Of a stretch of DNA of 64,000 nt, positions 3,420 to 51,171 are shown one piece after another. How positions within the stretch are numbered: position 1 is the first letter of the stretch; each line of letters opens with the position of its first letter. The stretch is from Gemmatimonadota bacterium (lineage in GTDB: Bacteria; Gemmatimonadota; Gemmatimonadetes; Gemmatimonadales; GWC2-71-9): the NCBI GenBank assembly GCA_039588335.1, contig JBDGZZ010000022.1, positions 1,963 through 65,962 on the forward strand, read 5' to 3'. A program made the position numbers and the translations under genes. The notes beneath the pieces are model-generated. The model had not been told where the DNA came from. It ran no database searches and saw only the letters and a program-made list of their open reading frames with translations.

Positions 3420-3553
3420 CAATGCCAAGCTCAAAGTGATTGGCGGATGGGCCATGGAAACGTGGCCCATCCGCAGTTACGCCGGTATCGCCGGCGTGCC
3501 CAGCCCCTGTATCAGTTACTTGCCCTGGCACCGCCAGACCGCTATCTCAACCA

Positions 3554-20366: not shown

Positions 20367-20411
20367 ACCGCCAGCGGAAGGGTCCGGCGGCTGATTGCCC
20401 TCGAGCGACGA

Positions 20412-33762: not shown

Positions 33763-33985
33763 AACGACCTCCTAAGTGCCTAGTACTAGGTAGTTTGAGG
33801 CGAACGTGAAGGACCCTTAACTTTTCAGGCCAATCCACACGCCCGGGCCAGGCTTAGTTATTTTCTTTAGTTGAGTTAACCGAAGGCCGGGGCTCAGGCA
33901 GCCTGGTTGATGGCAGCCTGAGGTCCCCGAGAGGATTCAGGTCGATTCAGGCAATTGAAACGCAAGACTCTCATGAAGGCATAAG

Positions 33986-35902
33986 ATGACCACGACAACT
34001 CCTGCCCCGAGGACGGATTCGTTGCCCAAGATAGCTACGAAGAGGAAGAGACCGAGAGTCATCAAGGTAAAAGAGCACACGGTAGAGGTCGTGTCGGACT
34101 CTGGTGAAGGCGCACAGAAGTGTAGCCAGATCTTCGCTTCCGTCTCGGCCAAGATGGGCAACGGTGTCTGGACTGTTGAGATAATACCGGCGGAGATCCA
34201 GCCGCCACCGAGGACCCCGACCAGTGCCAGCGGTAACCGAATTCGCATCGGGGCCGGCCCGGTCACCAATTGGGGAGACGCTGCCAACCTCGTCATGGCG
34301 TTCAACGAGCAAGTGTTGCTCAACCGACACCGTCTCGATGCGCTCGCCGAGGATGCGATCATCCTGATCGACGATATGTGGCTGAAGCACGATGACCCGG
34401 ACATCCGCAAGCAGTGGGAGGAAGCGATCGAGGAGATGTCCGGACGTAACTACCGGTTCGTGATGGTGCCTCTGGAGGAGCAATCTCTCACAATCGTTGA
34501 GAATCCACGCCGGGGCAAGAACATGTTCGCACTCGGTGTGCTCGCCGCAATCTACTCCCGCGACTTGGACAAGATCCGCGACTTGATTGCTCTCCAGTTC
34601 AAGCGCAAGGCCAAAGTAATCTACGAGAATAACGTGGCGCTGCTGGAGTTGGGGCACAAATGGGCGAAGGAAAACCTCGACTTCCGAGTCGAGGTTCCCA
34701 CCAAAGAGTCTGATCGCCCGATGGTGGTGATGAACGGCAACCAGGCGGTCGGGTTCGGCGCCATAGCTGCTGGCATGGAGCTGTGCTCCATGTACCCGAT
34801 CACGCCGGCTACATCGGCGTCGCACCACCTGAGCGACATCTTCGAGCAGTTTGGCGGGGTCGTACACCAGGCCGAAGACGAGATCGCGGCGGCCGGCGTG
34901 GCGATCGGCGCGTCGTTTGCCGGTAAGGTTGCGTTTACCATCACATCAGGACCAGGCATGGCGTTGAAGACCGAGTTCCTCGGACTAGCCATCATGACCG
35001 AGGTCCCGCTGGTGGTAGTCGATGTGCAGCGCGGAGGCCCAAGTACCGGGCTCCCGACCAAGATTGAGCAAGGTGACCTGCTGTCCTCCATCTTCGGTCA
35101 GCCGGGCGATGCTCCGCACGTGGTAATGGCTCCGGCAACGATGGAAGAGTGTTTCCTATGTATGACCACTGCCCGGCGGATTGCAGAGGCATTCCGCTGC
35201 GTGGTCATAGTGCTGTCGGATGCCAATCTGGCTACGGGCGTGCAGCCGTTTCCACGGCCCGACCTCAAGTCGGAGTGGATGGCAGCCCCACTCGATCTGG
35301 CTCGGGTGCCCGAGGGCACGCTTCCCTACGATTGGGATACGCAGCTCGGTCTGTCCCAGCGGGTCATTCCGGGACAGCCGGGCGGGATGCACATTGTGAC
35401 CGGGCTCTCCCACGATGAGAACAGCAAGATCGGATACAGCCCCGACGTGCATGAGCGGGGCTGTCAGATGAGAGCTCGCAAGATGGCGGTATTCCAGCAG
35501 ACCCTGAAAAAGCCGGTGGTGCATGGAGACGAGTCAGGGGACCTGCTGGTAGTTGGATGGGGGAGCACTTGGGGGGCGATCGAGGAAGCGGTGGACCGGA
35601 GTCGTGAGGAGGGTTTGTCAGTTTCCTCACTTCACCTGCGTTTCCTCTCTCCGCTGGAGCCTGGCCTCAAGGACATCTTCAGCCGATTCAAGAAAGTGAT
35701 GACGGTTGAGGTCAATTACAGCGACGACCCGGGCGACCCCTTCATCACGGATGAGAATAGGCGCCGGGGCCAGCTCAGCTGGCTGCTAAGGGCCAGCACG
35801 CTTGTCGATGTTGATTGCTGGACCAGGGTTCCGGGCCAGCCGTTGCGTCCGGTTAACATTCTAGATGCCATTCGTCGTCACATGCCGAATGGGGTGAAAT
35901 AA
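33986..35902 (+). CDS. korA: 2-oxoacid (2-oxoglutarate):ferredoxin oxidoreductase, fused gamma/alpha subunit
   Basis: 638 aa. SDSGEGAQ...AEIQPP gamma-type N-terminus followed by an alpha domain (MYPITPATSASHHL, GPGMALKTE, DVQRGGPSTGLPTK). Confidence 0.85.
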   Translation: MTTTTPAPRTDSLPKIATKRKRPRVIKVKEHTVEVVSDSGEGAQKCSQIFASVSAKMGNGVWTVEIIPAEIQPPPRTPTSASGNRIRIGAGPVTNWGDAANLVMAFNEQVLLNRHRLDALAEDAIILIDDMWLKHDDPDIRKQWEEAIEEMSGRNYRFVMVPLEEQSLTIVENPRRGKNMFALGVLAAIYSRDLDKIRDLIALQFKRKAKVIYENNVALLELGHKWAKENLDFRVEVPTKESDRPMVVMNGNQAVGFGAIAAGMELCSMYPITPATSASHHLSDIFEQFGGVVHQAEDEIAAAGVAIGASFAGKVAFTITSGPGMALKTEFLGLAIMTEVPLVVVDVQRGGPSTGLPTKIEQGDLLSSIFGQPGDAPHVVMAPATMEECFLCMTTARRIAEAFRCVVIVLSDANLATGVQPFPRPDLKSEWMAAPLDLARVPEGTLPYDWDTQLGLSQRVIPGQPGGMHIVTGLSHDENSKIGYSPDVHERGCQMRARKMAVFQQTLKKPVVHGDESGDLLVVGWGSTWGAIEEAVDRSREEGLSVSSLHLRFLSPLEPGLKDIFSRFKKVMTVEVNYSDDPGDPFITDENRRRGQLSWLLRASTLVDVDCWTRVPGQPLRPVNILDAIRRHMPNGVK

Positions 35903-36855
35903 TGACACAGACAGAGTGCTCGCTGCTGGGCTGCGGAGTAGACGAGGACCAGTGGTACTCGATGGACGATTACGAAGGTGCGGTTGCGCGCTGGTGCCCG
36001 GGATGTGGTGACCATGCAGTGCTGACGGCCGTACAACGCCTTCTCGAAGCCGAGCAGTTGGTGCCAGAGAAGACGGTGTTCGTATCGGGTATCGGTTGCT
36101 CGAGCCGCTTCCCACACTACCTGAAGACATATGGGTTCCACGGACTCCACGGCAGAGCGCTGCCGGTGGCAACGGGAGTCAAGCTGCGCCGTCCGGATCT
36201 TCAAGTATTTGCGGTCATGGGCGACGGGGATTGCTGCTCGATCGGTGCAGCTCACTGGATCCACACCGTGCGCTACAACCCCAACATGGTTGCCCTGATG
36301 CTGGACAACGGGGTATACGGTCTGACCAAGAACCAGACGTCACCAACTTCTCCGGAGGGCTATCCCAGCAACACGCAGCCACGCGGTGCGGTTCTGGAAC
36401 CGATGAACCCTATTGCGACAACGCTCGGAGTAACGAATGCGTCTTTCGTGGCTCAGACTGGCGACTGGATTCCAGATCACTTGTACGAGACCATCGCGGC
36501 CGGATATCGACACAAAGGCTTTTCGTTCATCCGAGTGCTGCAGCGGTGCCCGGCGTACACGACTCCCCTGTTCGAGGAGGCTGTGCGCAACCCCGAATTG
36601 GTGGAGTTGATGGTGCATCCTGACGGCATACCGGTCAACGGTCTGGAGCAGATCTACAAGAACCATGTACCACACGATCCATCTGATTTGCACAACGGTC
36701 AACGGCTGGCGGACTTCGATTCCAAGATCCGGCTGGGCCTGTTCTACCGAAACGAGAGCATTCCCCGCTACGAAGAGGTCCGGCACCAGGCGAACCGTAC
36801 CGCGGAGGAAAAGATACAGTTGCTGAATGCGGAGCTAGATCGATATGCCGTCTGA
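35902..36855 (+). CDS. korB: 2-oxoacid:ferredoxin oxidoreductase beta (TPP-binding) subunit
   Basis: WCPGCGDHAVL, GIGCSSRFP and GDGD motifs. The ATG overlaps the korA stop (TAATG). Confidence 0.85.
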   Translation: MTQTECSLLGCGVDEDQWYSMDDYEGAVARWCPGCGDHAVLTAVQRLLEAEQLVPEKTVFVSGIGCSSRFPHYLKTYGFHGLHGRALPVATGVKLRRPDLQVFAVMGDGDCCSIGAAHWIHTVRYNPNMVALMLDNGVYGLTKNQTSPTSPEGYPSNTQPRGAVLEPMNPIATTLGVTNASFVAQTGDWIPDHLYETIAAGYRHKGFSFIRVLQRCPAYTTPLFEEAVRNPELVELMVHPDGIPVNGLEQIYKNHVPHDPSDLHNGQRLADFDSKIRLGLFYRNESIPRYEEVRHQANRTAEEKIQLLNAELDRYAV

Positions 36856-37858
36856 CGAACGGACCGAATTGGCGATCAAGGCGCTGGCTGGGCAGACGCA
36901 AGGCTTCCGGTCGGCGCTCGCCACTACCATAGAACAGATTCGCAGTTTCTTGGCGTCGCACGGATCGGCCACTGACGGGAAGGCGGTCCGATTCATGACT
37001 GAACTGGGCCCTTTTGCCGAGGGACTGATCGATGCAGATAGATTCTCAGCGTTGTTCGCTGACAACCTGAAACTCGATACGGTCACACTCGACACCATCG
37101 GGAAAGCGCTGGATACGCTGACGGAACTCGCGGATCGCGGAGATGACATCTTCAAGGTCGATATAGAAAGCGGCGAGAGCCTCAGAGAAGGTGTCGCAGG
37201 CGCTCTGGATGATTGCGGCCGAGCATTTGGGGCGGCACGTGTGTTCGAGTTATCGAAGTTCGGCCGGTTTCCGGACAGCGAGCACGCCCGCTCACTTGGC
37301 TCTTTCCCGTTCCACCGGTGGAGCAGGGGTGAGCGAAGGCTCGCCCCTCCCTTGGTCGTAAGTGTCGACGGGAGCGATTTGCGGGCTGCAGGGCTGGCAG
37401 ATTTCATGGATGGCACGCAGAAGATAGTGCTCGTGGTAAGGGGGGAGTCGACTCCCGTGCCGCTAGTGCGCCTGATCACTCCAGGCGTGTTCGTACAACA
37501 GACAACCGAGCCGGGCGACATCAGTCGGCTGGCTGCCTGTGACGGACCGGGCGTGACAGCCATCGTTCCGGAGTCCGCCGCCCGCTTCGTTCATGACCCG
37601 TCCGTTGGTCGAGAAGCTGGAGAACGTCTCACTGTTTCGACGTTGCCAGAGGAGAGACGCAGGAAGCCGGTCGGTGGCGTGAGTGTCTCGCAGCAGTCCG
37701 AGGAGTTGCTCCAGTTGAAGGTGCTGTCGGGGCAGATGGGGGCAGCAGCTCAGGTTGGTACGGCCGAACCTGTGGGGGCAGTGAGTGCATCCGCCGATCC
37801 GGTGGACAAGTTGGCAGCCTGGCTCTTGAGTCAAGCCGACTTGAAGGACCTCGGTTAG
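36845..37858 (+). CDS. hypothetical soluble protein (337 aa) embedded between korB and rnfB
   Basis: The ATG overlaps the korB end by 11 nt, and the stop lies 9 nt before rnfB. Amino-acid composition is normal, whereas the antisense ORF 36835-37563 is S/P/A/R-biased. No recognisable motif and only 2 Cys. Confidence 0.6.
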   Translation: MPSDERTELAIKALAGQTQGFRSALATTIEQIRSFLASHGSATDGKAVRFMTELGPFAEGLIDADRFSALFADNLKLDTVTLDTIGKALDTLTELADRGDDIFKVDIESGESLREGVAGALDDCGRAFGAARVFELSKFGRFPDSEHARSLGSFPFHRWSRGERRLAPPLVVSVDGSDLRAAGLADFMDGTQKIVLVVRGESTPVPLVRLITPGVFVQQTTEPGDISRLAACDGPGVTAIVPESAARFVHDPSVGREAGERLTVSTLPEERRRKPVGGVSVSQQSEELLQLKVLSGQMGAAAQVGTAEPVGAVSASADPVDKLAAWLLSQADLKDLG

Positions 37859-37867
37859 TCTGAGCCA

Positions 37868-38719
37868 ATGGAAGTCTCGACCATCCTTGGTTCTGCAGCG
37901 ATACTCGGAGGGGTAGGGCTCACGTTCGGCACGCTGATCTCCCTTGCCCACCTGAAGCTCAAGGTTTGGGAAGATCCCCGAATCGACGAAGTCACAGACC
38001 TTCTGCCAGGTACGAACTGCGGAGCCTGCGGACGAGCCGGATGCCATGCGTTCGCTGAGGCGTTGGTAGACGGCAACGTGCAGCCGGCGACATGTACAGT
38101 CATGGGCCCTGACGATGTGTTCGACGTGGCTGGGTACCTTGGCGTGGAGGCTGGCGAAGCCAACAAACGTGTGGCTCGCCTGCTCTGCGCGGGCGGATGC
38201 GATGTCGCCGAGCAACAGGCCGAGTATAGAGGCTTGCGGAACTGCAAGGCCGCTGTGACGGTTGCCGGAGGCGGTAAGGGATGCGCCTGGGGTTGCCTAG
38301 GGCTGGACGACTGTGAACGATCGTGTGATTTCGAAGCGATCTACATGAACGCAGTTGGGATTCCGATTGTCATCCCCGAGAAGTGTACGGCGTGCGGTGA
38401 CTGCGTTGAAGCTTGCCCTCTCGATTTGTTCACTCTGATGCCGATCGAGCAGAAGTTGATCGTGCAGTGCAAGAACCTGATAGATGGTGACGAGGCGGAG
38501 GCCGCCTGCAAGGTTGCGTGCACGGCGTGCGGCAGGTGCGCCGCTGACGGGGCACCAGGCCTGATCGAGATGGTCAACGGCCTCGCAGTTATTGACTACG
38601 ACAAAAACGAGTTGGCTACTCCGGACGCCATCGCCCGGTGTCCGACGGGGGCCATCGCATGGGTTGATGGAGCTCAGTTTGCTGATACGCCCGAATTGGC
38701 GAGGAGCGCTACGGTATGA
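37868..38719 (+). CDS. rnfB: Rnf complex subunit B (membrane-anchored polyferredoxin)
   Basis: N-terminal TM helix, NCGACGRAGCHAFAEAL...ATC motif, and ferredoxin-type CTACGDCVEACP and CTACGRC...RCP clusters. Confidence 0.9.
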   Translation: MEVSTILGSAAILGGVGLTFGTLISLAHLKLKVWEDPRIDEVTDLLPGTNCGACGRAGCHAFAEALVDGNVQPATCTVMGPDDVFDVAGYLGVEAGEANKRVARLLCAGGCDVAEQQAEYRGLRNCKAAVTVAGGGKGCAWGCLGLDDCERSCDFEAIYMNAVGIPIVIPEKCTACGDCVEACPLDLFTLMPIEQKLIVQCKNLIDGDEAEAACKVACTACGRCAADGAPGLIEMVNGLAVIDYDKNELATPDAIARCPTGAIAWVDGAQFADTPELARSATV

Positions 38720-41700
38720 AACGCAACAAAGCTAGTGAAGCATCAGCTAAGGCCAAGTACCCCGGGATCGTTACCGCGGTTGACGGGAGTACGGCAGTCG
38801 TCGAGGTGGAAACTGCGGCCAGCGAAGCGGCCGGTGCATATCCGATCACGCCGTCCACGCAGATGGGTGAGGGGTGGGCTGCCGCGTTGGCGGCGGGCAG
38901 GAAGAACGTAAATGGCCGCAAGCTGATCTTCTTCGAGCCCGAAGGAGAACATGCGGCAGCGGCGGTGACCGCCGGTATGTCGATGACCGGTCTGCGGGCA
39001 ACGAATTTCTCCAGCGGTCAGGGCATCGCATACATGCACGAATCGCTGTACCCGGCGGTGGGTAAGCGGCTGACCTATGTGCTGAACGTCGCAGCTCGCG
39101 CGATGACAAAGCACGCCTTGAACGTGCATGCCGGGCACGACGACTACCACGCGGTCGATGATACGGGTTTCTTCCAGCTCTTCGCCAAGAACCCTCAGGA
39201 GATAGCCGACCTCACGCTGATCGCGCACCGGACGGCCGAGCTGTCGCTGAATCCGGGGCTGTGTGCCCAAGACGGGTTCCTCACCAGTCATGTGATCGAG
39301 TCGGTGAGGCTGCCTGAGCGCGAGATGATCAAGGAGTATCTCGGCGATCCGTCAGACATCATCGAATCGCCCACGCCGGCGCAACGTCTCGTCTTCGGTG
39401 AGAAGCGCCGCCGGATTCCGGAGATGTTCGACCTAGACTACCCGGCGATGATCGGTGTCGTTCAAAACCAGGATTCCTACAATCAGGGCGTCGCTGCCCA
39501 GCGTCCGTTCTACTTCGATCACGTAGTGGCTCTTGCCGATCAGGCGATGGCCGAGTTCGAGGCGCTGACCGGCCGGCGCTATGCTCGCGTAATGTGCTAC
39601 CGCATGGATGATGCGGAATACGTGATCGCGGGACAGGGATCGCTGGTGTCAAATGCCGAGGTTGTTTGTGACTATCTGCGCGAGAGTAGGGGTCTCAAGG
39701 TCGGGGTCCTGAATGTCACCATGTTCCGTCCGTTCCCTTCAGACCTGATGTCTGAGACGTTGCGGGGCAAGAAATCCATCACGGTACTCGAACGAACAGA
39801 TCAGCCATTGGCTGTAGATGCCCCACTATTGCGAGAGATGCGGGCGGCCATGGGCAAAGCTCTGGAGAACTCGCGGGCAGGTGCTGGTGAAGTCCCGCAT
39901 TCGGGCGTTGTGTCGTGCGGTGCAGATGAGATCCCGGAGTTCTTCTCTGGTTGCTTCGGACTCGGCAGCCGGGACATTCAGCCCGGTCAACTCGTGGCCG
40001 CAGTTGAGAACATGTTGGAGGATGGAAAGAGACGACGTCAGTTCTATCTGGGGATCGATTTCGTGCGTGCGGGGACCCAGTTGCCCAAGCTTCAAATCTG
40101 GCAGGAACAACTGCTCGAGGGCTATCCCGACATTGCGGATCTGGCGCTGGCGTCGAAGGAGGATCTCAACCTACTGCCCGAGGATGCTATCTCCATCCGT
40201 ATCCACTCAGTGGGTGGATGGGGAGCCATCACCATGGGGAAGAACCTGGCAATGACGGCGGCCGACCTTTTCGGCCTCAACATCCAGGCGAATCCCAAGT
40301 ATGGGTCCGAGAAGAAGGGGCAACCGACCACGTTCTACGCGACGCTGGCAGAAGAGGTGCTGCGGCTGAATTGTGAGTTGAAGCATGTCAACGTTGTCCT
40401 CGCTCCTGACCCCAATGTGTTCAAGCACTCGAATCCGCTGGCAGGGATTGCGGACAACGGTGTCTTCATCATCCAGAGCGATTTCGACGCAGAGACTTTC
40501 TGGAACAGCCTGCCGGGGACGGCGCAACGCGCGCTGAAGTCGAAGGGCGTGAAGGTCTACCTGCTAGACGCGTTCGCGATCGCTTCGGCCGAGGCATCGG
40601 ATCCGGCACTGCGGTATAGGATGCAGGGTGCGGCATTCATGGGTGCGTTCTTCCACGTTTCACCTCTAGTCGATCGGTATAAGCTGGAAGAGGAGAAGCT
40701 ATTTGACGGCATTCGCGCGCAGCTGAAGAAGAAGTTCGGGCACCTGGGCGAACGTGTGGTTGAGGACAACGTCCGGGTCATTCGGAGGGGCTTCGATGAG
40801 ATCAGGGAACTGGACATCGAGCACCTGAGTACAGAGAAGTCAGAAGCTGGTTCAGTGCCGCAGATGCCGGACGTTCTGGACGGTGCGGGCTGGCAGGACG
40901 GAATTGGCAACCCCGGAAGATTCTGGGAGCAGGTCTGCCATCTCTACAAGACGGGAGATGATGGCATTGCTGATCCGTTCGCGGCGATCAGCGCGATTCC
41001 GGCAGCAACGAGTACCATCCGCGATATGACGGATGTTCGCTTTGAGATCCCGGACTTCGTGGCGGAGAAGTGTACCGGTTGCGGCCAATGTTGGGTGCAA
41101 TGTCCGGATACTGCGATTCCGGGATTGGTGACCGAAGTCGACCAGGTCATCTACGCGGCCATAAATACGGTGTCCAACGGTAAGTCGTACGACCGATTGC
41201 GACAGGTGGTACCGCATATCGCTCGCGAATCGCGGCGCATAATGAAGGGCGTCGCAGTCAAATCGTTTGCCGATATCATGTCGAGCGCTTATGAGAGTGT
41301 GGCGGAAAAGCTGAAGCTCGATCCGGAGCGGCGTTCGGCACTCGACGGCGAATTCGGTTCAGTCTATTCAGCCTTGGCCGACTTCCCGCTTGCGAAAACA
41401 GCCCCATTCTTCGATGTCCCCGAGGATCAGGAGAAGGGAACCGGAGCGCTCCTCTCAATCACGGTCAATCCGGAGACGTGCAAGGGGTGCAATATCTGTG
41501 TAGACGTGTGCCCTGACGAAGCACTCGTGACGATCAAACAAGATGAAGAGGCAGTTGACAAGCTGCGGCGGAATTGGGCGTTGTGGCAAAACCTGCCGGA
41601 AACGGACGATCGGTACATCAACATCTCTAACATGGACGAAGGCATCGGGGTTCTCTCGTCCCTGTTGCTCAAGAAGCACAATTACAGGTCTATGATGGGT

Positions 41701-43755
41701 GGTGACGGGTCATGCATGGGCTGCGGTGAGAAGACGGTCATTCACCTGGTCTTGTCAGCAGTCAACGCGCTCATGATTCCACGAGTGCAGAAATATGTAG
41801 ACAAGTTGGACGACCTCATATCACGACTCGATGCCAAGGCTCGGGACATACTCGTATCTGAGGCAGATCTGGATAAGGTCGGGTCAAGTGAGGGTGAGGT
41901 GGAGATCCCCCTCGAGAAATCGAAGCAGGGACAGGTCGAGCACTTGAACAGTGTCATGCACGATCTGAAGGATCTCCGCTGGCGATATGCGGAGGGACCA
42001 AGCGGGAAAGGTAGGTCGACCTTGGGCATGACGAACGCCACGGGTTGCTCATCCGTGTGGGGGAGTACCTATCCATATAACCCGTACCCATTCCCATGGA
42101 CCAACCATCTGTTCCAGGATGCGCCTTCCATTGCGATCGGAATCTTCGAAGGCCACATGCGGAAGATGGCAGATGGTTTCATTGCCGTCCGTCGCGCTGA
42201 GCTGGAGTTGAGCGGAGAGTATGAGGCCGAGACACACGAGCCTTTCTTCTCTGAGTTTGACTGGCGCCAGTTCGATGACGCCGAGTTCGCCATGTGTCCG
42301 CCGATCTTTGCCGTGGGCGGCGACGGCGCGATGCTCGACATCGGTTTCCAGAACCTGTCGCGACTGCTGGCATCTGGGAAACCGATTCGGGTTATCGTAC
42401 TGGACACACAAGTCTACTCGAATACGGGAGGACAGGCCTGCACCAGCGGATTCCTGGGTCAGGTGTCCGACATGGCGGCCTACGGTGCCGGGCAGCATGG
42501 GAAGGAGGAGATGCGCAAGGAACTTTCTCTGATCGCCATGGCACATGGGCGAGTCTTCGTACTTCAGTCAACGCAGGCGGCTGCATCACATTTGATCGAA
42601 GGTGTACTGAAGGGGCTCCAATCCAAGTGTCCTGCCGTGTTCGGGCTGCATTGCCCTTGTCCTCCAGAGCATGGACTGGGCGACGACCAGGCCACCAGGG
42701 CATCACGTCTCGCCATGGAGAGTCGAGCCTACCCGGTTCTGATGTACGATCCGTTCGGTGGGGACTATATCAGCGAACAGCTGACTCTGGACGGGAACCC
42801 CTCGGTAGACGAGACATGGCCTACCTATGAGGTCAGCTACCTCGACGACGGTGGTGAAGAGAAACGACTCGAGTTGCCGGTTACGATTGCCGACTGGGCT
42901 GCCACGGAGACGCGGTTCCAGAAACACTTCAAGACGATCAAGGGCGATGTAGATGAAGACGGCCTGGTGCCGTTTCACGAGTACATGGTACTACCGAGCG
43001 ACGAACGTGAGGAAAAGACTCCCATCATCTATCAGATTGATGACGAGAAAAAGCTCACACGTCTCTTTGTGTCCGGCGAGATGGTCGAGCTGGCCGAGGA
43101 TCGGCTGCGAGTCTGGTCGCAACTCAAACAAATGGCTGGACTCGAGTTGGCACCCGACGTGAGGGACGGTGTCGAGTATGAACTGGAGGCGGAGTTCAAC
43201 AAGAAGGCAGAAGCTCTGCAAACAGAGTACACAGCGCAGTTGGCGCAGTTGAAGGCGCGGTATCCAGCCCTGGTGGCTCGCAAGCTGGCCGAAGGGCTCG
43301 TGCGGGCAGGAAACGGTGGGCGGACAGTCGAGGACTTGCTGGCTCAGGTTCAGGAAATGCCGCTTGCTCCCGTCACGGCCGAGATGGCTGGTGACGGCGA
43401 CCTTGCGGCGGCTCCGGCGGCTGCAACGGCGCCGGGAACAGTAGCGGCGGCTACAGCCGTGGCTGAGGCACCTGCGGCCGTAGAGGAGGAGGAAGAGGAG
43501 GGGCTGGTGATGGAGCCGTACATCGATTCGGCTCGATGCACCACGTGCGATGAATGCACGAACCTCAACAATAAGATGTACGCATACAACGAGAAGAAAC
43601 AGGCATATATAAAGGATCCCAGGGCAGGAACTTTCAAGCAACTTGTGCAGGGTGCCGAGAAGTGTCCCGTTCGCATCATACATCCGGGAACACCTCTCAA
43701 CCCGAGGGAGAAAGATCTGGAGAAGTGGGTCAAGCGGGCCGAGCCCTTCAACTGA
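38716..43755 (+). CDS. por: PFOR/NifJ-family single-polypeptide 2-oxoacid:ferredoxin oxidoreductase, unusually long (1679 aa) with a C-terminal ferredoxin domain
   Basis: AYPITPSTQMGE (domain I); HSVGGWGAITMGKN...PKYGSEKKGQPT (domain III); CTGCGQCWVQCP and CKGCNICVDVCP (domain V); GDGSCMGCGEK, ATGCSSVWG, GGDGAMLDIGFQNL and VLDTQVYSNTGGQ (TPP domain). The C-terminal part has an Ala/Pro/Glu linker followed by CTTCDEC...CP. Confidence 0.9.
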   Translation: MKRNKASEASAKAKYPGIVTAVDGSTAVVEVETAASEAAGAYPITPSTQMGEGWAAALAAGRKNVNGRKLIFFEPEGEHAAAAVTAGMSMTGLRATNFSSGQGIAYMHESLYPAVGKRLTYVLNVAARAMTKHALNVHAGHDDYHAVDDTGFFQLFAKNPQEIADLTLIAHRTAELSLNPGLCAQDGFLTSHVIESVRLPEREMIKEYLGDPSDIIESPTPAQRLVFGEKRRRIPEMFDLDYPAMIGVVQNQDSYNQGVAAQRPFYFDHVVALADQAMAEFEALTGRRYARVMCYRMDDAEYVIAGQGSLVSNAEVVCDYLRESRGLKVGVLNVTMFRPFPSDLMSETLRGKKSITVLERTDQPLAVDAPLLREMRAAMGKALENSRAGAGEVPHSGVVSCGADEIPEFFSGCFGLGSRDIQPGQLVAAVENMLEDGKRRRQFYLGIDFVRAGTQLPKLQIWQEQLLEGYPDIADLALASKEDLNLLPEDAISIRIHSVGGWGAITMGKNLAMTAADLFGLNIQANPKYGSEKKGQPTTFYATLAEEVLRLNCELKHVNVVLAPDPNVFKHSNPLAGIADNGVFIIQSDFDAETFWNSLPGTAQRALKSKGVKVYLLDAFAIASAEASDPALRYRMQGAAFMGAFFHVSPLVDRYKLEEEKLFDGIRAQLKKKFGHLGERVVEDNVRVIRRGFDEIRELDIEHLSTEKSEAGSVPQMPDVLDGAGWQDGIGNPGRFWEQVCHLYKTGDDGIADPFAAISAIPAATSTIRDMTDVRFEIPDFVAEKCTGCGQCWVQCPDTAIPGLVTEVDQVIYAAINTVSNGKSYDRLRQVVPHIARESRRIMKGVAVKSFADIMSSAYESVAEKLKLDPERRSALDGEFGSVYSALADFPLAKTAPFFDVPEDQEKGTGALLSITVNPETCKGCNICVDVCPDEALVTIKQDEEAVDKLRRNWALWQNLPETDDRYINISNMDEGIGVLSSLLLKKHNYRSMMGGDGSCMGCGEKTVIHLVLSAVNALMIPRVQKYVDKLDDLISRLDAKARDILVSEADLDKVGSSEGEVEIPLEKSKQGQVEHLNSVMHDLKDLRWRYAEGPSGKGRSTLGMTNATGCSSVWGSTYPYNPYPFPWTNHLFQDAPSIAIGIFEGHMRKMADGFIAVRRAELELSGEYEAETHEPFFSEFDWRQFDDAEFAMCPPIFAVGGDGAMLDIGFQNLSRLLASGKPIRVIVLDTQVYSNTGGQACTSGFLGQVSDMAAYGAGQHGKEEMRKELSLIAMAHGRVFVLQSTQAAASHLIEGVLKGLQSKCPAVFGLHCPCPPEHGLGDDQATRASRLAMESRAYPVLMYDPFGGDYISEQLTLDGNPSVDETWPTYEVSYLDDGGEEKRLELPVTIADWAATETRFQKHFKTIKGDVDEDGLVPFHEYMVLPSDEREEKTPIIYQIDDEKKLTRLFVSGEMVELAEDRLRVWSQLKQMAGLELAPDVRDGVEYELEAEFNKKAEALQTEYTAQLAQLKARYPALVARKLAEGLVRAGNGGRTVEDLLAQVQEMPLAPVTAEMAGDGDLAAAPAAATAPGTVAAATAVAEAPAAVEEEEEEGLVMEPYIDSARCTTCDECTNLNNKMYAYNEKKQAYIKDPRAGTFKQLVQGAEKCPVRIIHPGTPLNPREKDLEKWVKRAEPFN

Positions 43756-43762
43756 TCTTCCA

Positions 43763-45085
43763 ATGTTCCACAAGTTCACGTTCCGGCACGGGGTCCACCC
43801 GCCCGAGCTCAAGCAGCTGACCGAGTCGCTTCGGATCCGGCGCATGCCGTTTCCGGACGAAGTGGTGCTACCGCTCAGTCAGCACACTGGGAAACCGGCT
43901 ACGGTAATGGTGCGTCCGGGAGACCGGGTCGAACGCGGCGACAAGATAGCTGATGCCGACGGGTTCATCTCCGCTCCGGTCCACGCGTCCGCCGCAGGGA
44001 CAGTGGAAGACATCGGTCTGTGGCCACACCCGCTGGGGTCATACTCGCCGGCGGTCCGAATAACAGTGGACCGCTATTCGGCACAAGCTGCGAGGCCCCG
44101 AGTAGTACCGGAGTGGGAGGGCCTCACTCCCGACGGGATTCGCCAGGCCGTGAAGGACGGTGGGCTGGTGGGATTGGGAGGCGCCGCGTTCCCCACCCAT
44201 GTGAAACTGAGTCCCCCCAAAGACAAGCAACTCGACACCCTCATCATAAATGGCTGCGAGTGCGAGCCCTATCTGACGACTGACCATCGTACCATGGTGG
44301 AGTATCCCGAGCGCGTGCATCTGGGGATTCGCATAATGATGCAATGTCTGGGTGTGGGCCGCACGATGATCGGTATCGAAAAGAACAAGCCGGATGCTAT
44401 CGACGCAATTCGGGATACGCTTCCTGCCGACCTGGATGTGACGGTACATCCATTGACGGTGAAATATCCCCAGGGTGCGGAGAAGATGCTCATCGAGGCT
44501 TTGGCGGAGAGGGAGGTGCCTTCTGGAAAGCTGCCGCTAGACGCCGGTGTGGTGGTACAGAACGTTGCATCGGTTGCCACTATAGCGGAAATCTTTGAAA
44601 CCGGGCTGCCACTGATCGAGCGTATCGTCACAGTCACCGGTCACGGCATCAAGGACCCGTCCAACCTGATCGTTCCGGTCGGTACCAAATTGGCTGATCT
44701 GCTCGATACGTGTGGCGGCCTCACGGACGACGCTTTCGAGATCGTGTTTGGCGGTCCCATGATGGGTGCTGCGCAGGCCAACCTCGACGTGCCGATTCTC
44801 AAGGGCACTACTGGAGTAGTGGTCCTCACGGAATCGCAATGCAGGGCCAAGGAGTCTCATCCGTGCATCAGGTGTGGGCACTGTCTGGATGCCTGTCCCG
44901 TCTTCTTGAACCCACAGTTGTTGGGGAGTTTGGCGCGAGCAGAGCGGTGGGAAGAGATGGAAGGCAACCACCTTCTCGACTGCATGTTGTGTGGCTGCTG
45001 TTCCTATGCGTGTCCCTCCAATATTCCGCTGAGCCAGATGTTTGCACTGGGCAAGGCTGCTCTACGAAAGAGCAAGGCGGCGTGA
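43763..45085 (+). CDS. rnfC: Rnf complex subunit C
   Basis: MFHKFTFRHGVHPPE N-terminus, GLVGLGGAAFPTHVKL, CIRCGHCLDACP and CMLCGCCSYACP motifs. ATG 43763 is preferred over the track start at 43643. Confidence 0.9.
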   Translation: MFHKFTFRHGVHPPELKQLTESLRIRRMPFPDEVVLPLSQHTGKPATVMVRPGDRVERGDKIADADGFISAPVHASAAGTVEDIGLWPHPLGSYSPAVRITVDRYSAQAARPRVVPEWEGLTPDGIRQAVKDGGLVGLGGAAFPTHVKLSPPKDKQLDTLIINGCECEPYLTTDHRTMVEYPERVHLGIRIMMQCLGVGRTMIGIEKNKPDAIDAIRDTLPADLDVTVHPLTVKYPQGAEKMLIEALAEREVPSGKLPLDAGVVVQNVASVATIAEIFETGLPLIERIVTVTGHGIKDPSNLIVPVGTKLADLLDTCGGLTDDAFEIVFGGPMMGAAQANLDVPILKGTTGVVVLTESQCRAKESHPCIRCGHCLDACPVFLNPQLLGSLARAERWEEMEGNHLLDCMLCGCCSYACPSNIPLSQMFALGKAALRKSKAA

Positions 45086-46086
45086 CGACACCTTCCTTTC
45101 TGATAACTGCCTCTCCACACCTGGGATCACGCGATACCACGCCGACTATCATGTGGTCGGTAGTCCTCAGTTTAGTTCCGGTCGTGGCGGTATCGATCTT
45201 CTACTTCGGACCCTCTGCTGTCCTTGTGATTTCAGCTGCAACCGCCGGGGCAGTCATCACGGAGTATGCATTTGGTGCCAAGGGAACTCTGAAAGACGGA
45301 TCGACTGCCATAACCGGAGTGCTGCTGGGATTGACGCTCCCCCCGGGATTGCCGATATGGATGGCCTTTCTGGGTGGGGTTTTCGGTATCGGATTCGGGA
45401 AGCTGATTTTCGGAGGCCTGGGGCAGAACATCTTCAATCCAGCACTCCTTGGGCGAGCGTTCCTGCAGGCGGCTTTTCCCGTTGCGATCACGACCTGGCC
45501 AGCGCTGGGTGGTAGCTGGTGGAGTCTGCGGGGCGACAACTTCGCACTTCCCTTGATGAGTCCCAATGTCCCGGACGCTTTGACCGGTGCAACACCGCTC
45601 GGGCTCATGAAATTCGATCAGATGACGACCGCGAGCAGCGATCTAATAATGGGGTCGGTGGGTGGTTCACTGGGGGAGACTTCCGGTGTCGTCATTCTGA
45701 TTTGCGGTGCCTATCTTGCTCTGAGGAACCACCTCAATTGGCGAATCCCGGCGAGCATATTCCTGACGGTGGCAGTTTTGGCCGGCGGAGTACACTTGCT
45801 CGATCCGGTGCGTTACCCCAACGCGATCTTCATGCTGTTTTCCGGCGGCCTGATGCTGGGAGCGGTGTACATGGCGACCGACATGGTGACTTCGCCGGTC
45901 ACAAACCGCGGCTGCTGGGTGTTCGGATTCGGTATCGGGTTTCTGGTGGTGGTCATCAGACTGTGGGGTGGGCTGCCCGAAGGAGTCATGTACGCAATCC
46001 TGCTCATGAACGCGCTGGTTCCGTTCATTAATCGGGCGACGCAACCACGAGTGTTCGGTACTCGGCTGAAGGAGGCACGGTCTTGA
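45082..46086 (+). CDS. rnfD: Rnf complex subunit D
   Basis: Polytopic membrane protein. GTG overlaps the rnfC stop (GTGA). DALTGATPL flavinylation motif; YMATDMVTSP. Confidence 0.9.
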   Translation: MTTPSFLITASPHLGSRDTTPTIMWSVVLSLVPVVAVSIFYFGPSAVLVISAATAGAVITEYAFGAKGTLKDGSTAITGVLLGLTLPPGLPIWMAFLGGVFGIGFGKLIFGGLGQNIFNPALLGRAFLQAAFPVAITTWPALGGSWWSLRGDNFALPLMSPNVPDALTGATPLGLMKFDQMTTASSDLIMGSVGGSLGETSGVVILICGAYLALRNHLNWRIPASIFLTVAVLAGGVHLLDPVRYPNAIFMLFSGGLMLGAVYMATDMVTSPVTNRGCWVFGFGIGFLVVVIRLWGGLPEGVMYAILLMNALVPFINRATQPRVFGTRLKEARS

Positions 46087-46766
46087 CCGGCGGTAGCCAG
46101 CAGGGCCAGGCGAACGGACCAGGGGCACCTCCCATGAGACCGGAGGTTCCTCCGTGGAAGTTACTGTCCACGCTCGGCACGGCCGGGGCTGTTGCTGGCC
46201 TCTTGATCGTCTTCGTTTTCGTTGCGACTGAGCCGGCCATCAAGGCCCACAAGGCTGAGGTGTTGAGGTTGGCGATCCAGGAAGTCCTCAAAGGTCCTGA
46301 CAGTTTCGACACGCTGTTTGTGGTTGAGGGGAGGCTGGAGGAGGAGCCACCAGCAGGAGTGAATCTCGAGGCACTCGAGCATGTGTACGTTGGGTACGGA
46401 GTGGATGGGAACCAGCTGGGATTTGCGATTGCCTCCGGGGAACCTGGGTTTCAGGACATAATCCGACTGATCTTCGGTTATGACGCATTCAATCGTACCG
46501 TCCTGGGCATGAAGGTCTTGGAGAGCAAGGAGACACCGGGGCTAGGGGACAAGATTGAGAAGAATCTGGATTTCGTGCAACAATTCGAAGGTGCAGTGAC
46601 GCCCCTCGAGGGAGTGAACCCGAGGCGCGCCACAGGTGACGAGCACGAAATCGACATGATCACGGGAGCGACGATATCCTCCCGTGCGGTAGTACGCATC
46701 ATCAACAACGCAATGGAGCGGCTGGGGCCGCTCATTGACGAATACAATGGCGGAGGGAGCCGATGA
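46083..46766 (+). CDS. rnfG: Rnf complex subunit G (FMN-binding)
   Basis: Single N-terminal TM helix and the DMITGATISSRAV FMN-attachment motif. The TTG start overlaps the rnfD stop; an alternative ATG lies at 46134. Confidence 0.85.
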   Translation: MTGGSQQGQANGPGAPPMRPEVPPWKLLSTLGTAGAVAGLLIVFVFVATEPAIKAHKAEVLRLAIQEVLKGPDSFDTLFVVEGRLEEEPPAGVNLEALEHVYVGYGVDGNQLGFAIASGEPGFQDIIRLIFGYDAFNRTVLGMKVLESKETPGLGDKIEKNLDFVQQFEGAVTPLEGVNPRRATGDEHEIDMITGATISSRAVVRIINNAMERLGPLIDEYNGGGSR

Positions 46767-47419
46767 GAGCGACGACTCCGCAGCAGGATTTCATGCGTGG
46801 CATCTGGAGAGAGAATCCAGTGCTCATTCAGATGCTCGGACTGTGTCCTGCGCTGGCGGTGACCAATACGGTGAAAAACAGCATCGCCATGGGGCTCGCC
46901 ACGTTTTTCGTGCTGACGGGGTCCAGCCTCTTGGTCTCTCTATTCAAGCGGTTCATACCGCACGAGGTACGCATATCCACATATATCCTGATCATTGCGA
47001 CGTTCGTGACGATCGCCGACATGACGCTCGAGGCGGTGGTCCCCGACATACACAAGGCGTTGGGTGCGTTCATTGCGCTGATCGTTGTCAACTGCATGAT
47101 CCTCGGACGCCAAGAAGCCTTTGCGTCGAAGAAGCCGGTGGGCCGCGCGCTATTGGACGCCTTTGGAACGGGGATCGGTTTCATAATAGCCATGTTGATG
47201 ATGGGTACCGTCAGGGAAGTGTTGGGCAACGGATCGTTCCTCGGCGTCAGCCTGTTCGGTCCCAATTTTGAACCGTGGGTGGTGTTCATACTTCCTCCAG
47301 GCGGATTCCTGACGATCGGATTCATCTTGCTGGGGTTGAGTTGGATCGAGCGCAGGAGAAAACAGAAGCCTATGGTGCGGGAATGGCCTGAAGGCGTAGC
47401 CTCGGAGAAGGCGGCATGA
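46763..47419 (+). CDS. rnfE: Rnf complex subunit E
   Basis: NPVLIQMLGLCPALAVT motif, 6 TM helices, ATGA overlap with rnfG. Confidence 0.9.
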   Translation: MRATTPQQDFMRGIWRENPVLIQMLGLCPALAVTNTVKNSIAMGLATFFVLTGSSLLVSLFKRFIPHEVRISTYILIIATFVTIADMTLEAVVPDIHKALGAFIALIVVNCMILGRQEAFASKKPVGRALLDAFGTGIGFIIAMLMMGTVREVLGNGSFLGVSLFGPNFEPWVVFILPPGGFLTIGFILLGLSWIERRRKQKPMVREWPEGVASEKAA

Positions 47420-47997
47420 CCAGCGACCTGCTATGGATCCTGATCTCGGCGATGGTGGTAAATAACTTCACGCTCGCCTATTTCCTCGGTCTGTGCCCCT
47501 TCATGGGAGTATCTGGTCGAGTGGAGACCGCCATCAGGATGGGGGCAGCGAACATATTCGTCCTGACCATCACGGCCATCTGTGCGTGGTTTCTCAACAC
47601 ATATATTCTGCCATATGCGCCATACTTGCGACTGATTTCTTTCATTGTCGTCATAGCATCCCTGGTGCAGATCGTTGAAATGACGATCAAGAAGATCAGT
47701 CCCACGCTGTTCAGACAACTTGGGATATATTTGCCTTTGATAACCACGAACTGCGCAATCCTCGGTTTTGCTATCTTCGCAACAAACCGGGGTTACGGGT
47801 TCTTCCAAGGTCTCTCATTTGCCATCGGTGCCGGGCTTGGCCTGACGCTTGCATTGGTGCTCATGGCATCCATAAGAGAGAATAGTGAGTTGGTGGATGT
47901 ACCAGAAGTTGCCAAGGGAACGGCCCTCGTGTTCATCATTGCCGGATGTCTGTCCTTGGCGTTCATGGGATTCGCCGGACTGTTGACTTCCACATGA
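47416..47997 (+). CDS. rnfA: Rnf complex subunit A
   Basis: NNFTLAYFLGLCPFMGVS motif, 6 TM helices, ATGA overlap with rnfE. Confidence 0.9.
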   Translation: MTSDLLWILISAMVVNNFTLAYFLGLCPFMGVSGRVETAIRMGAANIFVLTITAICAWFLNTYILPYAPYLRLISFIVVIASLVQIVEMTIKKISPTLFRQLGIYLPLITTNCAILGFAIFATNRGYGFFQGLSFAIGAGLGLTLALVLMASIRENSELVDVPEVAKGTALVFIIAGCLSLAFMGFAGLLTST

Positions 47998-48167
47998 TTG
48001 AAGTCCTGGCCATTCTTGGGTTTGCAGTACTGTTCGCGGTATTTGGAGCCCTCCGGGGCAGGGTGCAGGAGTCGCATCGGTGCGATGCCTGCCCGGGCCG
48101 GGAAGATCCGGGTGCCTGCGGGATCTGTCATACCTTACGCGATATTTCGGAGTCAAGCCATGCATAA
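47994..48167 (+). CDS. 57-aa membrane miniprotein: one TM helix plus a 2x CxxC tail (NqrM-like or FeoB-associated Cys-rich type architecture)
   Basis: MIEVLAILGFAVLFAVFGALRGRVQESHRCDACPGREDPGACGICHTLRDISESSHA. The ATG overlaps the rnfA stop (ATGA), and the stop overlaps the apbE start by 8 nt. Confidence 0.55.
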   Translation: MIEVLAILGFAVLFAVFGALRGRVQESHRCDACPGREDPGACGICHTLRDISESSHA

Positions 48168-49158
48168 AACTGAGTCGACTGATGCCTCTGGTCCCAGTCG
48201 GCGTGATGTAGTCCTACTAGGGATTGGTGCGTTTGCTGTTGCGGCGGTCCCGTTCCTAGGGGTGGGCCGTAGGCGTCTCTTTAGAAGGACCGTACCCGTG
48301 ATGGGTACGGTCGCTGACATAGGTGTAGTGGACAGAAACAACGACTATGCGCAGGCTGCTATTGATGCCGCAATCCAGCAGTTACGCTACGTCGATCGCA
48401 CGATGTCGCGGTTCAGTGAGGCATCAGACGTCGGTCGGGCAAACCGATTGGCTGCTGCTGACGGTACATGCATCACGAAAGCCACAGCAACCGTGATCGA
48501 AGAGGGACTGCGTTGGGCGGCGGCCAGTGAAGGTGCGTTCGATCCATGCCTCGGCACAGCCGTCGGTCTCTGGGATGTGAAACATCGTACCAAGCCCCCG
48601 GAGAAAGACCAAGTTGCCCAACTGGCAGGCCGAAACCTCTACAGAAAGCTCGATTTGGGTGAATCCGGCGACAGGCCGGTCGTACGCCTCACAGAGGCTG
48701 ATGTCGCGATCGACCTGGGCGGCATCGCCAAGGGCTACGGAGTGGACCTGGCAGTGCAGTCGCTCAGGGAGTGGGGTATCGAACACGCGCTGGTCAACGT
48801 GGGTGGAGATCTGTACGCCATGGGTGAGTCGGAGGACGGTGATCCCTGGAGTGTAGGAGTCAGATCGCCTTACGCTCCCAGCAAGGTGACACACCGCTTC
48901 GAGATCGCCGACCAGGCAGTCGCTACCTCAGGCGATTATCTCCAGTACTTCCGTTATGGGGGCAGGAGTTACCACCATCTGCTCGATCCCAGTACGGCTG
49001 CCCCTCGACGCGGGGACGTCCACAGCGTGACGGTGACAGCCGACAATTGCATGGCTGCGGACGCCGCGGCTACTGCGGTGTTCGGAATGCCACGCGAAGA
49101 GGCAGATGCGTTACTCGGTATCAGAGCGCCCAGCGCGAAGATAGTAAGCGTGGACTAG
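48160..49158 (+). CDS. apbE: FAD:protein FMN transferase
   Basis: Export-type N-terminus (SRRDVVLLGIGAFAVAAVPF), DLGGIAKGYGVD motif, TSGDY motif. ATG 48160 is preferred over the track start at 47998. Confidence 0.85.
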   Translation: MHKTESTDASGPSRRDVVLLGIGAFAVAAVPFLGVGRRRLFRRTVPVMGTVADIGVVDRNNDYAQAAIDAAIQQLRYVDRTMSRFSEASDVGRANRLAAADGTCITKATATVIEEGLRWAAASEGAFDPCLGTAVGLWDVKHRTKPPEKDQVAQLAGRNLYRKLDLGESGDRPVVRLTEADVAIDLGGIAKGYGVDLAVQSLREWGIEHALVNVGGDLYAMGESEDGDPWSVGVRSPYAPSKVTHRFEIADQAVATSGDYLQYFRYGGRSYHHLLDPSTAAPRRGDVHSVTVTADNCMAADAAATAVFGMPREEADALLGIRAPSAKIVSVD

Positions 49159-49182
49159 GGCAAGAGAACTCAGCGTACATGT

Positions 49183-49219
49183 GGGGAACGGGATATGCGC
49201 CCCGTTCCCCTTTTTCTTT
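49183..49219 (+). terminator. rho-independent terminator closing the kor-rnf-apbE operon
   Basis: GGGGAACGGG (49183-49192) and CCCGTTCCCC (49201-49210) form a perfect 10-bp stem. It is followed by TTTTTCTTT. Confidence 0.8.
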
Positions 49220-49285
49220 GGGGATGCTAATTTGGCAGTGTGGCACGAGCATGGTTACACGACGCAGTAGACGGTGGTTCTTGTC

Positions 49286-51170: not shown

Positions 51171-51171
51171 A

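Follow-up and report, generated by a model that had tools for sequence, protein, structure and literature searches.

The subject of this analysis is a 64,000-nt stretch of DNA (hereafter the window; positions 1,963 to 65,962 of the forward strand of contig JBDGZZ010000022.1, assembly GCA_039588335.1) from a Gemmatimonadota bacterium, in which genes for a two-subunit 2-oxoacid:ferredoxin oxidoreductase (OFOR; korAB), a long enzyme of the pyruvate:ferredoxin oxidoreductase (PFOR) family, a predicted Rnf pump and the flavin transferase ApbE form one compact operon. Between positions 33986 and 49158 of the window (+ strand), twelve same-strand open reading frames (ORFs) follow one another, each in frame with a single stop and with no intergenic gap larger than 9 nt (Table 1). 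korA and korB meet at TAATG (-1), korB overlaps orf337 by 11 nt, and orf337 is separated from rnfB by 9 nt. The rnfB and PFOR genes overlap by 4 nt, and 7 nt lie between PFOR and rnfC. The rnfC/D, D/G, G/E, E/A and A/orf57 junctions are 4-nt overlaps, and orf57 overlaps apbE by 8 nt. All the junctions from korA to apbE listed in a first-pass annotation of the window are present in the sequence where it placed them, and the single convincing terminator that it put after apbE is the sole strong one on the + strand between 32000 and 51500. Its gene names (KorAB, RnfB, PFOR family, RnfCDGEA, ApbE) are upheld by Pfam, NCBIfam and structure matches. Its gene list was incomplete: orf337 and orf57 went unnamed, and a ferredoxin tethered to the PFOR was overlooked.

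Table 1. Genes, PFOR segments and terminator of the operon (window coordinates; aa, amino acids; TPP, thiamine pyrophosphate)
Feature	Coordinates	Strand	Product	Domains, motifs and position
korA	33986..35902	+	Alpha subunit of two-subunit OFOR, 638 aa	POR + POR_N + PFOR_II
korB	35902..36855	+	Beta subunit, 317 aa	TPP_enzyme_C + PFO_beta_C; TPP motif GDGD; Cys for one [4Fe-4S]
orf337	36845..37858	+	Orphan protein, 337 aa	Between korB and rnfB; conserved
rnfB	37868..38719	+	RnfB, polyferredoxin type, 283 aa, 21 Cys, N-terminal membrane helix	FeS + Fer4
Long PFOR, catalytic body (aa 1-1550)	38716..43365	+		Domains I-II-III, ferredoxin domain, TPP domain (Pfam order; 6CIN and 1B0P alignments)
Long PFOR, linker (~aa 1551-1600)	43366..43515	+	Ala/Pro/Glu-rich, variable	Lowest conservation in the PFOR protein
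Long PFOR, C-terminal ferredoxin domain (aa 1601-1679 plus stop)	43516..43755	+	Single-cluster ferredoxin	Fer4_13
rnfC	43763..45085	+	RnfC, NAD(H)-side subunit, 440 aa	RnfC_N + Complex1_51K + SLBB + Fer4
rnfD	45082..46086	+	RnfD, 334 aa, GTG start	NQR2_RnfD_RnfE (343 bits); flavinylation motif TGAT at residue 168
rnfG	46083..46766	+	RnfG, 227 aa, TTG start	FMN_bind; flavinylation motif TGAT at residue 194
rnfE	46763..47419	+	RnfE, 218 aa, conserved Cys pair	Rnf-Nqr (214 bits); GLCP and VNC motifs
rnfA	47416..47997	+	RnfA, 193 aa, conserved Cys pair	Rnf-Nqr (185 bits); GLCP and TNC motifs
orf57	47994..48167	+	Small membrane protein, 57 aa	One N-terminal helix and a four-Cys cluster; between rnfA and apbE
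apbE	48160..49158	+	FAD:protein FMN transferase, 332 aa	ApbE PF02424 (245 bits, cutoff 25.6)
Intrinsic terminator	49183-49219	+		Hairpin 49183-49210, 10-bp stem with 8 G-C pairs, then T-run TTTTTCTTT

The gene of the long PFOR, about 5 kb in length, lies between rnfB and rnfC and encodes 1679 aa. The protein belongs to the OFOR superfamily, with domains I, II and III, the ferredoxin and TPP domains, Cys sets for three [4Fe-4S] clusters and a GDG motif. Across 77 orthologues, neither the twelve cluster Cys nor the GGDG motif varies (100% conservation). The protein retains the substrate-site motifs YPITPS and VAARA (ARA). Identity to solved PFORs is about 30%. Because its score against TIGR02176, the equivalog model of the canonical homodimeric PFOR, is 422.5 bits against a cutoff of 911.35, we file the enzyme as PFOR-family and not as a canonical PFOR; the earlier label "PFOR" thus stands for the family and fails for the canonical enzyme. 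With the homodimeric PFORs of Desulfovibrio africanus (1B0P) and Moorella thermoacetica (6CIN), it shares the domain order, the three [4Fe-4S] clusters, the TPP GDG motif and the YPITPS/ARA motifs. It differs from them in two insertions of about 80 aa each (one within the ferredoxin domain, the other after the GCGE motif), in a 330-aa C-terminal extension and in its genetic bond to Rnf.

The extension consists of a helical part, then the linker, then a small ferredoxin domain. Residues 1551-1607 (about 57 residues) have AlphaFold2 confidence values (pLDDT) below 50 and no secondary structure, and similar Ala/Pro/Glu linkers also occur in distant PFOR relatives. The ferredoxin domain matches D. 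africanus ferredoxin I (1DAX, E=9e-4), and its Cys residues are nearly invariant among the 77 orthologues (C1608, C1611 and C1614 at 100%, C1650 at 99%). A linker and ferredoxin tail with the motif IIHPGTP ends PFOR relatives down to about 33% identity. By a motif test, most PFORs of the third locus set described below also carry the tail, and a minority lack it. No separate ferredoxin gene is found among the twelve ORFs of the operon.

Some long PFOR-like proteins of about 1500-1580 aa (P0252, P0269, P0274, P0280, P0292, P0301 and P0311) form a sister set with a helical end and no ferredoxin tail. The locus closest to tail-less P0252 is L161 (Binatia), with rnfB still upstream. The idea that only tailed PFORs are linked to Rnf was dropped: a scan with P0252 returned mostly tailed, Rnf-linked genes, and the contrast could not be made.

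All six Rnf subunit families are encoded together in the operon, with Pfam or NCBIfam matches above cutoff, including 76.4 bits for RnfB against TIGR01944 (cutoff 68.7) and 524 bits for RnfC against TIGR01945 (cutoff 246). RnfB also matches the Acetobacterium woodii (9ERI_B of 9ERI, E=3e-56) and Clostridium tetanomorphum (7ZC6, E=2e-50) structures. The functional motifs are likewise in place, namely [S/T]GA[T/S] in RnfD and RnfG, the Cys pairs of RnfA and RnfE, the FMN/NADH module of RnfC and the membrane-anchored Fe-S protein RnfB. The complex is a predicted ion-coupled ferredoxin:NAD+ oxidoreductase of the Rnf family. The TTG start of rnfG is preceded by a strong Shine-Dalgarno sequence (GAAGGAGG), and the N-terminus of ApbE carries, besides its enzymatic domain, a twin-arginine-type motif (SRRDVVLLGIGAFAVAA) followed by a hydrophobic stretch, as in an export signal.

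Related loci were collected in three scans of species-representative genomes. The first, run against one genome per species with the long PFOR of the window as query, returned 459 relatives, and the best 80 loci were examined. These come mostly from Gemmatimonadota metagenome-assembled genomes (MAGs), with some from Planctomycetota, Rokubacteria, Acidobacteriota and Eisenbacteria. Where contigs are sufficiently long, they keep the order korA-korB-orf337-rnfB-PFOR-rnfCDGEA-(orf57)-apbE with very few exceptions. A search of 1.84 billion representative proteins showed PFOR-like proteins of 1500-1780 aa to be a large family. Two of these, with 36-38% identity to the PFOR of the window, served as new queries and gave 166 and at least 560 further relatives. 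The second and third scans reached Proteobacteria (Methylococcales methanotrophs, tubeworm and clam symbionts, Beggiatoa-like bacteria, Sedimenticola, Ectothiorhodospira, Thiorhodospira and methylotrophic Betaproteobacteria) as well as Kiritimatiellae, Spirochaetaceae, Hydrogenedentota, Acidobacteriota, Myxococcota and many Bacteroidota. Several cultured isolates are among the carriers; candidates in culture are Ectothiorhodospira mobilis DSM 237, Sedimenticola hydrogenitrophicus, Methylotuvimicrobium sp. KM1, Novimethylophilus kurashikiensis La2-4, Cecembia rubra DSM 28057 and Flagellimonas lutimaris.

Gene-order statistics were drawn from 240 loci pooled from the three scans. The placement of rnfB and rnfC beside a PFOR-family gene, described for the window in the first-pass annotation, recurs in most of them: in the testable loci, the gene next downstream of the long PFOR is usually rnfC (182 of 193), and the one next upstream rnfB (170 of 199). 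Most of the loci lacking rnfB upstream show a Bacteroidota order, PFOR-rnfCDGEA-small protein-FNR-like-rnfB. Divergence of the PFOR correlates with that of each Rnf subunit (Spearman 0.79-0.92). Rnf of this type has a near-obligate genetic partner in the long PFOR, and the widespread core consists of rnfB, the long PFOR, rnfCDGEA and the small Cys protein, of which the operon in the window is one elaborated version.

Two local variants were also seen. A tandem rnfC-like pair follows the PFOR in Methyloprofundus and relatives (L092, L093, L094, L099 and L106), and five Methylococcales loci (L081, L084, L098, L101 and L103) show no rnfC after the PFOR within the sequence examined.

The tight junctions of the operon are themselves conserved. 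The 11-nt overlap of korB with orf337 is kept in 55 of 58 related loci and the 4-nt overlap of rnfB with the PFOR gene in 59 of 71, and korA and korB overlap by 4 nt in 44 of 53. This conservation across related loci indicates that compaction was selected and did not arise by chance. The single compact operon that had been proposed is supported. The possibility that internal signals split the locus into independent transcripts found no support: terminator-like matches inside the operon numbered 9 against 12.7 expected from shuffled sequence, and promoter-like matches 5 against 5.9, the latter being a weak test with a sigma-70 consensus that is probably invalid for Gemmatimonadota. The start codons chosen earlier are backed by Pfam and NCBIfam alignments that begin within a few residues of them. 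For korA and korB, whose starts a public gene caller had placed later, the N-termini are kept in orthologues and in-frame stops lie just upstream of the chosen starts.

KorAB is a two-subunit OFOR with an alpha subunit above the TIGR03710 cutoff (533 bits against 482.75), a beta subunit with TPP_enzyme_C and the Cys set for a single cluster, and no delta subunit. KorB scores 233 bits against TIGR02177, below the cutoff of 261.9, so that the pair passes its subfamily model on the alpha side only. KorB carries the motifs CPGCGDH, GIGCSS and MGDGD and a conserved N-terminal CSLLGC. The best solved relative of KorA is the 2-oxoglutarate:ferredoxin oxidoreductase (OGOR) of Magnetococcus (6N2N, E=6e-80), which we take to be an enzyme of an organism using the reductive tricarboxylic acid (rTCA) cycle. 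The name "Kor" implies specificity for 2-oxoglutarate; the closest structure is indeed an OGOR, yet no equivalog cutoff is reached. Like 6N2N and the Sulfolobus-type OFOR 5B46, KorAB combines a fused gamma-alpha subunit with a single-cluster beta subunit and has no delta subunit; it differs from both in a basic N-terminal tail and in translational coupling to orf337 and rnfB.

The basic tail of KorA (aa 1-30; 33986-34080) is rich in Lys and Arg; orthologues maintain its composition but not its sequence. In the PFOR, a run of Glu closes the linker directly before the ferredoxin domain. An electrostatic docking role for the basic tail and the Glu run is conceivable.

The genes around the core vary by lineage. 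In the Gemmatimonadota type, korAB is accompanied by orf337 and apbE, whereas korAB is again adjacent, without orf337, in Myxococcales and deltaproteobacterial MAGs, in Cyclobacteriaceae and in Acidobacteriota. A phosphoenolpyruvate (PEP) synthase gene, ppsA, stands beside the module in 16 loci, mostly of sulfur oxidisers and their relatives (L112, L115, L116, L118, L121, L122, L127, L134, L136, L142, L143, L152, L157, L173, L180 and L182). In these loci, which come from tubeworm symbionts, Sedimenticolaceae, Thiohalomonas, other Gammaproteobacteria and one Novimethylophilus MAG, ppsA is found a short distance past rnfA and the small Cys protein, in the same orientation. Such a neighbour suggests that the metabolite of the long PFOR is pyruvate. 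In loci of the Bacteroidota type and in many others, a reductase of the FNR family (NAD_binding_1) follows rnfA and the small Cys protein, with rnfB still present (e.g., L148 at 19177-21113, L146, L151, L189, L201, L218, L231 and L233). PEP synthase, FNR-like and korAB neighbours all fit a pyruvate/ferredoxin hub.

In characterised systems, OFORs exchange electrons with low-potential ferredoxin. RnfB forms the ferredoxin side and RnfC the NAD(H) side of Rnf, whose electron transfer is reversible and ion-coupled, and ApbE flavinylates RnfD and RnfG (PMC12174285). Set against this background, the gene content and protein architecture of the operon make it somewhat probable that it encodes a hard-wired, reversible, ion-coupled 2-oxoacid:NAD+ oxidoreductase needing no soluble ferredoxin. 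The PFOR-family enzyme would exchange electrons with Rnf via RnfB, the carrier being its own ferredoxin domain on the flexible linker of about 57 residues. This domain would act as a private carrier between the distal cluster of the PFOR and RnfB, a reading suggested because the ferredoxin sits on a disordered tether, the PFOR is encoded between rnfB and rnfC, and the 4-nt overlap with rnfB is conserved. Rnf would then couple the electrons of the tethered ferredoxin to NAD+/NADH and to Na+ or H+ translocation. The adjacent KorAB-type enzyme probably also feeds Rnf through RnfB and, more speculatively, may use the same tethered carrier, as it has no ferredoxin subunit of its own. ApbE is expected to flavinylate RnfD and RnfG, and orf57 may assist with the Fe-S centre that lies between RnfA and RnfE. 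The chain from 2-oxoacid through ferredoxin and Rnf to NAD+, workable in either direction, had been proposed in the first-pass annotation; it is strengthened by the PFOR-Rnf linkage, and since the PFOR carries its own ferredoxin domain, the module appears self-contained.

Going further, we tentatively propose that the long PFOR and Rnf assemble into one physical supercomplex, although we regard this as the doubtful part of the picture. In such a complex, the C-terminal ferredoxin would swing between the distal cluster and RnfB, possibly serving KorAB as well, giving a membrane-bound, ion-coupled pyruvate/2-oxoglutarate:NAD+ oxidoreductase with no free ferredoxin pool. Run backward, it would make pyruvate and 2-oxoglutarate from acyl-CoA, CO2 and NADH at the cost of membrane potential, and low-potential electrons would be shielded from O2 in aerobic or microaerobic Gemmatimonadota, Flavobacteriia, methanotrophs and sulfur oxidisers.

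Several observations weigh against the hard-wired module. The PFOR/rnfC junction is the loosest among related loci (median 12 nt, maximum 283), and about 11 of the 193 loci lack rnfC beside the PFOR. The correlated divergence of PFOR and Rnf is also expected under shared descent alone. The ferredoxin tail could serve another partner, or intramolecular transfer only, and a PFOR score below the TIGR02176 equivalog cutoff does not prove pyruvate as substrate. Co-transcription might serve stoichiometric supply only, with no Rnf-PFOR complex and with electrons carried by soluble ferredoxins encoded elsewhere; the tail would then be an internal or protective extension like domain VII of the D. africanus PFOR. 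Operon membership by itself never proves contact, KorAB-type OFORs normally use soluble ferredoxin, and a minority of long PFORs lack the tail by the motif test, among them P0252, whose closest locus keeps rnfB upstream. We nevertheless consider this explanation improbable, since in many phyla the PFOR gene is flanked by rnfB and rnfC and its 4-nt overlap is conserved, and since invariant ferredoxin Cys behind a long disordered linker are the anatomy of a swinging carrier and not of a domain packed for protection. The contig comes from a metagenome, and a chimera of unrelated kor, por and rnf fragments, a concern already raised for the kor/rnf/por joints, was looked for. No point in its favour was found, composition is uniform over the joints, dozens of independent assemblies, complete chromosomes among them, show the full order, and the core order recurs in isolate genomes; synteny in the 240 loci rules such an artefact out for practical purposes.

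If the hard-wired module is accepted, we lean modestly towards net oxidation in the source organism, with 2-oxoacids from sugars and peptides converted to acyl-CoA, CO2 and NADH and with ions exported. The window encodes peptidases, pentose-phosphate genes and an aminotransferase, which suggests that the organism is a heterotroph, and fermentative lineages such as Kiritimatiellae, Spirochaetaceae and Hydrogenedentota, anaerobes among them, carry the same module. The same hardware might instead run in reverse, with NADH and membrane potential driving Rnf to reduce the tethered ferredoxin for anaplerosis, C2 assimilation or CO2 fixation, and with the tether keeping electrons from O2. This direction is the main rival reading, which we hold possible but rather unlikely. 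It is favoured by PEP synthase genes placed immediately after the module in tubeworm symbionts, Sedimenticolaceae, Thiohalomonas and sulfur oxidisers related to them, some of them autotrophs, by the many carriers that are aerobes or microaerobes (methanotrophs, Ectothiorhodospira, Flavobacteriia) and by an O2-dependent fatty acid desaturase and a c-type cytochrome encoded in the window. The similarity of KorA to the Magnetococcus OGOR also fits, but homology to a carboxylating enzyme does not fix direction. Rnf is known to run backward in Azotobacter (PMC12174285). Against reversal stand the apparent heterotrophy of the source organism, the fermenters just named and the 64-kb window itself, in which no ATP-citrate lyase or other autotrophy marker was seen.

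Net oxidation is nonetheless not general, because several carriers are aerobes or autotrophs and the PEP synthase neighbour fits pyruvate synthesis. Related tubeworm symbionts carry the module, and in a Riftia symbiont transcriptome, the closest published account that the searches gave, a "PFOR-like" gene and the dimeric korAB were co-regulated; "PFOR-like" and korAB(3) fell together when rTCA genes rose (PMC11636981), which argues against reversal. The same study lists the direction of RNF and of the OFOR isoforms as unknown (PMC11636981), and its genes may not be those of this cluster.

Rnf is usually treated as a pump drawing on a pool of soluble ferredoxin. The Rnf of the window resembles the Chlorobium/Bacteroides rnfBCDGEA type and those of A. 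woodii and C. tetanomorphum in having all six subunits, the cofactor motifs and a polyferredoxin RnfB. Whereas known Rnf complexes work with soluble ferredoxin, here a 5-kb PFOR gene stands between rnfB and rnfC, with korAB and orf337 upstream. A B-first rnf gene order, as in the window, is reported for Chlorobi and Bacteroidetes (PMC5736913; PMC4014512). Extra genes of rnf operons named in the available sections of reviews are of other kinds, namely an added cytoplasmic subunit in Azotobacter Rnf1 and an endonuclease III gene (PMC12174285; PMC4014512). The 2025 Rnf/Nqr review makes no mention of PFOR (PMC12174285) and the 2014 evolution paper none of pyruvate (PMC4014512); neither describes a dedicated, genetically embedded donor enzyme for Rnf. 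No account of a PFOR gene within an rnf operon emerged from full-text literature searches, with subscription journals outside their scope and a prior description therefore possible. The earlier remark that no operon of this composition was known thus holds for the published descriptions found, while the rarity that it implied does not, given 459, 166 and at least 560 relatives in the three scans.

Enzymes joined to an electron acceptor or carrier are familiar in other forms. In Euglena and Cryptosporidium, PFOR is fused to an acceptor domain as pyruvate:NADP+ oxidoreductase, and the E2 component of 2-oxoacid dehydrogenases has swinging-arm domains on Ala/Pro-rich linkers. The common idea is an electron or acyl carrier covalently attached to a 2-oxoacid enzyme via a flexible linker. 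In the long PFOR, the attached domain differs in being a small [4Fe-4S] ferredoxin, and the final partner would be a membrane ion pump.

The presence of a PFOR with a tethered ferredoxin inside the rnf operons of hundreds of species suggests a private path for low-potential electrons. Such an arrangement would surprise a specialist, and many of its carriers are aerobes, which are not expected to depend on O2-sensitive ferredoxin chemistry. Operating forward, it would be a more energy-efficient substitute for the pyruvate and 2-oxoglutarate dehydrogenases; operating backward, it would allow membrane-potential-driven incorporation of CO2 in animal symbionts and in bacteria that abound in soil, sediment and the sea. 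The physical association, the electron route, the substrates and the direction that we infer from sequence are directly testable, because cultured carriers exist.

The small protein orf57 is a regular companion of Rnf. A gene of the same form lies 3′ of rnfA in 43 of the 49 first-set loci that hold rnfA and in all six distant loci checked (Bacteroidota, gamma- and betaproteobacteria). Among 37 orthologues, 19 give weak matches to the FeoB-associated Cys-rich membrane protein family (PF12669; best E=8.9e-6), and the window copy has no match. Orf57 is a candidate Fe or Fe-S delivery factor. Identification as NqrM (DUF539) was rejected, as 0 of 37 orthologues match at E<=1 and NCBIfam returned nothing; the likeness to NqrM is one of form only, a single helix with a Cys cluster encoded next to apbE.

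The layout nevertheless recalls the Na+-NQR operon nqrABCDEF-apbE-nqrM, in which apbE and a gene for a small Cys-rich membrane protein with one helix likewise come after the pump genes. That protein, NqrM, seems to be required for the intramembrane Fe-S centre of NQR (PMC12174285). In many related loci, the FNR-family gene after rnfA also occupies a position equivalent to that of nqrF after nqrE. In contrast to NQR, the system of the window keeps RnfB and RnfC, which identifies it as Rnf, and the orf57 orthologues lack an NqrM match. The proposed origin of NQR is a Bacteroidota rnfBCDGEA operon that acquired an FNR-family subunit (PMC12174285; PMC4014512). The clade in which rnfA and the small Cys protein are followed by an FNR-like gene may therefore be close to the Rnf lineage ancestral to Na+-NQR, and may be informative on the transition from Rnf to NQR.

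The other uncharacterised gene, orf337, is present in 64 of the 80 loci of the first set. The N-terminal part of its product is helical; an alpha/beta domain, a disordered segment and a C-terminal helix that is conserved (PVDKLAAWLL) make up the rest. Its homologues fall into 958 clusters, every one named "hypothetical". No family was returned by Pfam or NCBIfam for the window copy, nor by Pfam for any of the 40 aligned members. Its AlphaFold2 model (mean pLDDT 82.6) gave no match with E<=0.001 in a search of the Protein Data Bank. The top fold matches, which hinted at a middle domain of TPP enzymes, are weak (E 0.1-0.7) and were not relied on. Orf337 is probably an accessory protein specific to the korAB-bearing version of the module.

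Upstream of korA, a 223-nt region holds two inverted repeats (33774-33795 and 33893-33922), one a palindrome with a perfect centre and the other a hairpin with 11-nt arms. A conserved operator at this site was considered and discarded, with no k-mer widely common to 54 orthologous upstream regions, and no Rfam family reaches its gathering score in the 64-kb window.

Downstream, a second two-subunit KorAB-type OFOR pair (50145-52992, - strand) runs convergently to the operon, and a Memo-like gene (49274-50107, + strand) lies in between; only the closest relatives (L002 and L004) share these neighbours. Elsewhere in the window, a 1169-aa ORF (3440-6949, + strand) encodes an unusual fusion, in which a molybdopterin oxidoreductase (aa 41-743, with the domains Fe4S4, Molybdopterin and Molydop_binding) is joined to a class-V aminotransferase/cysteine-desulfurase-like domain (aa 787-1146).

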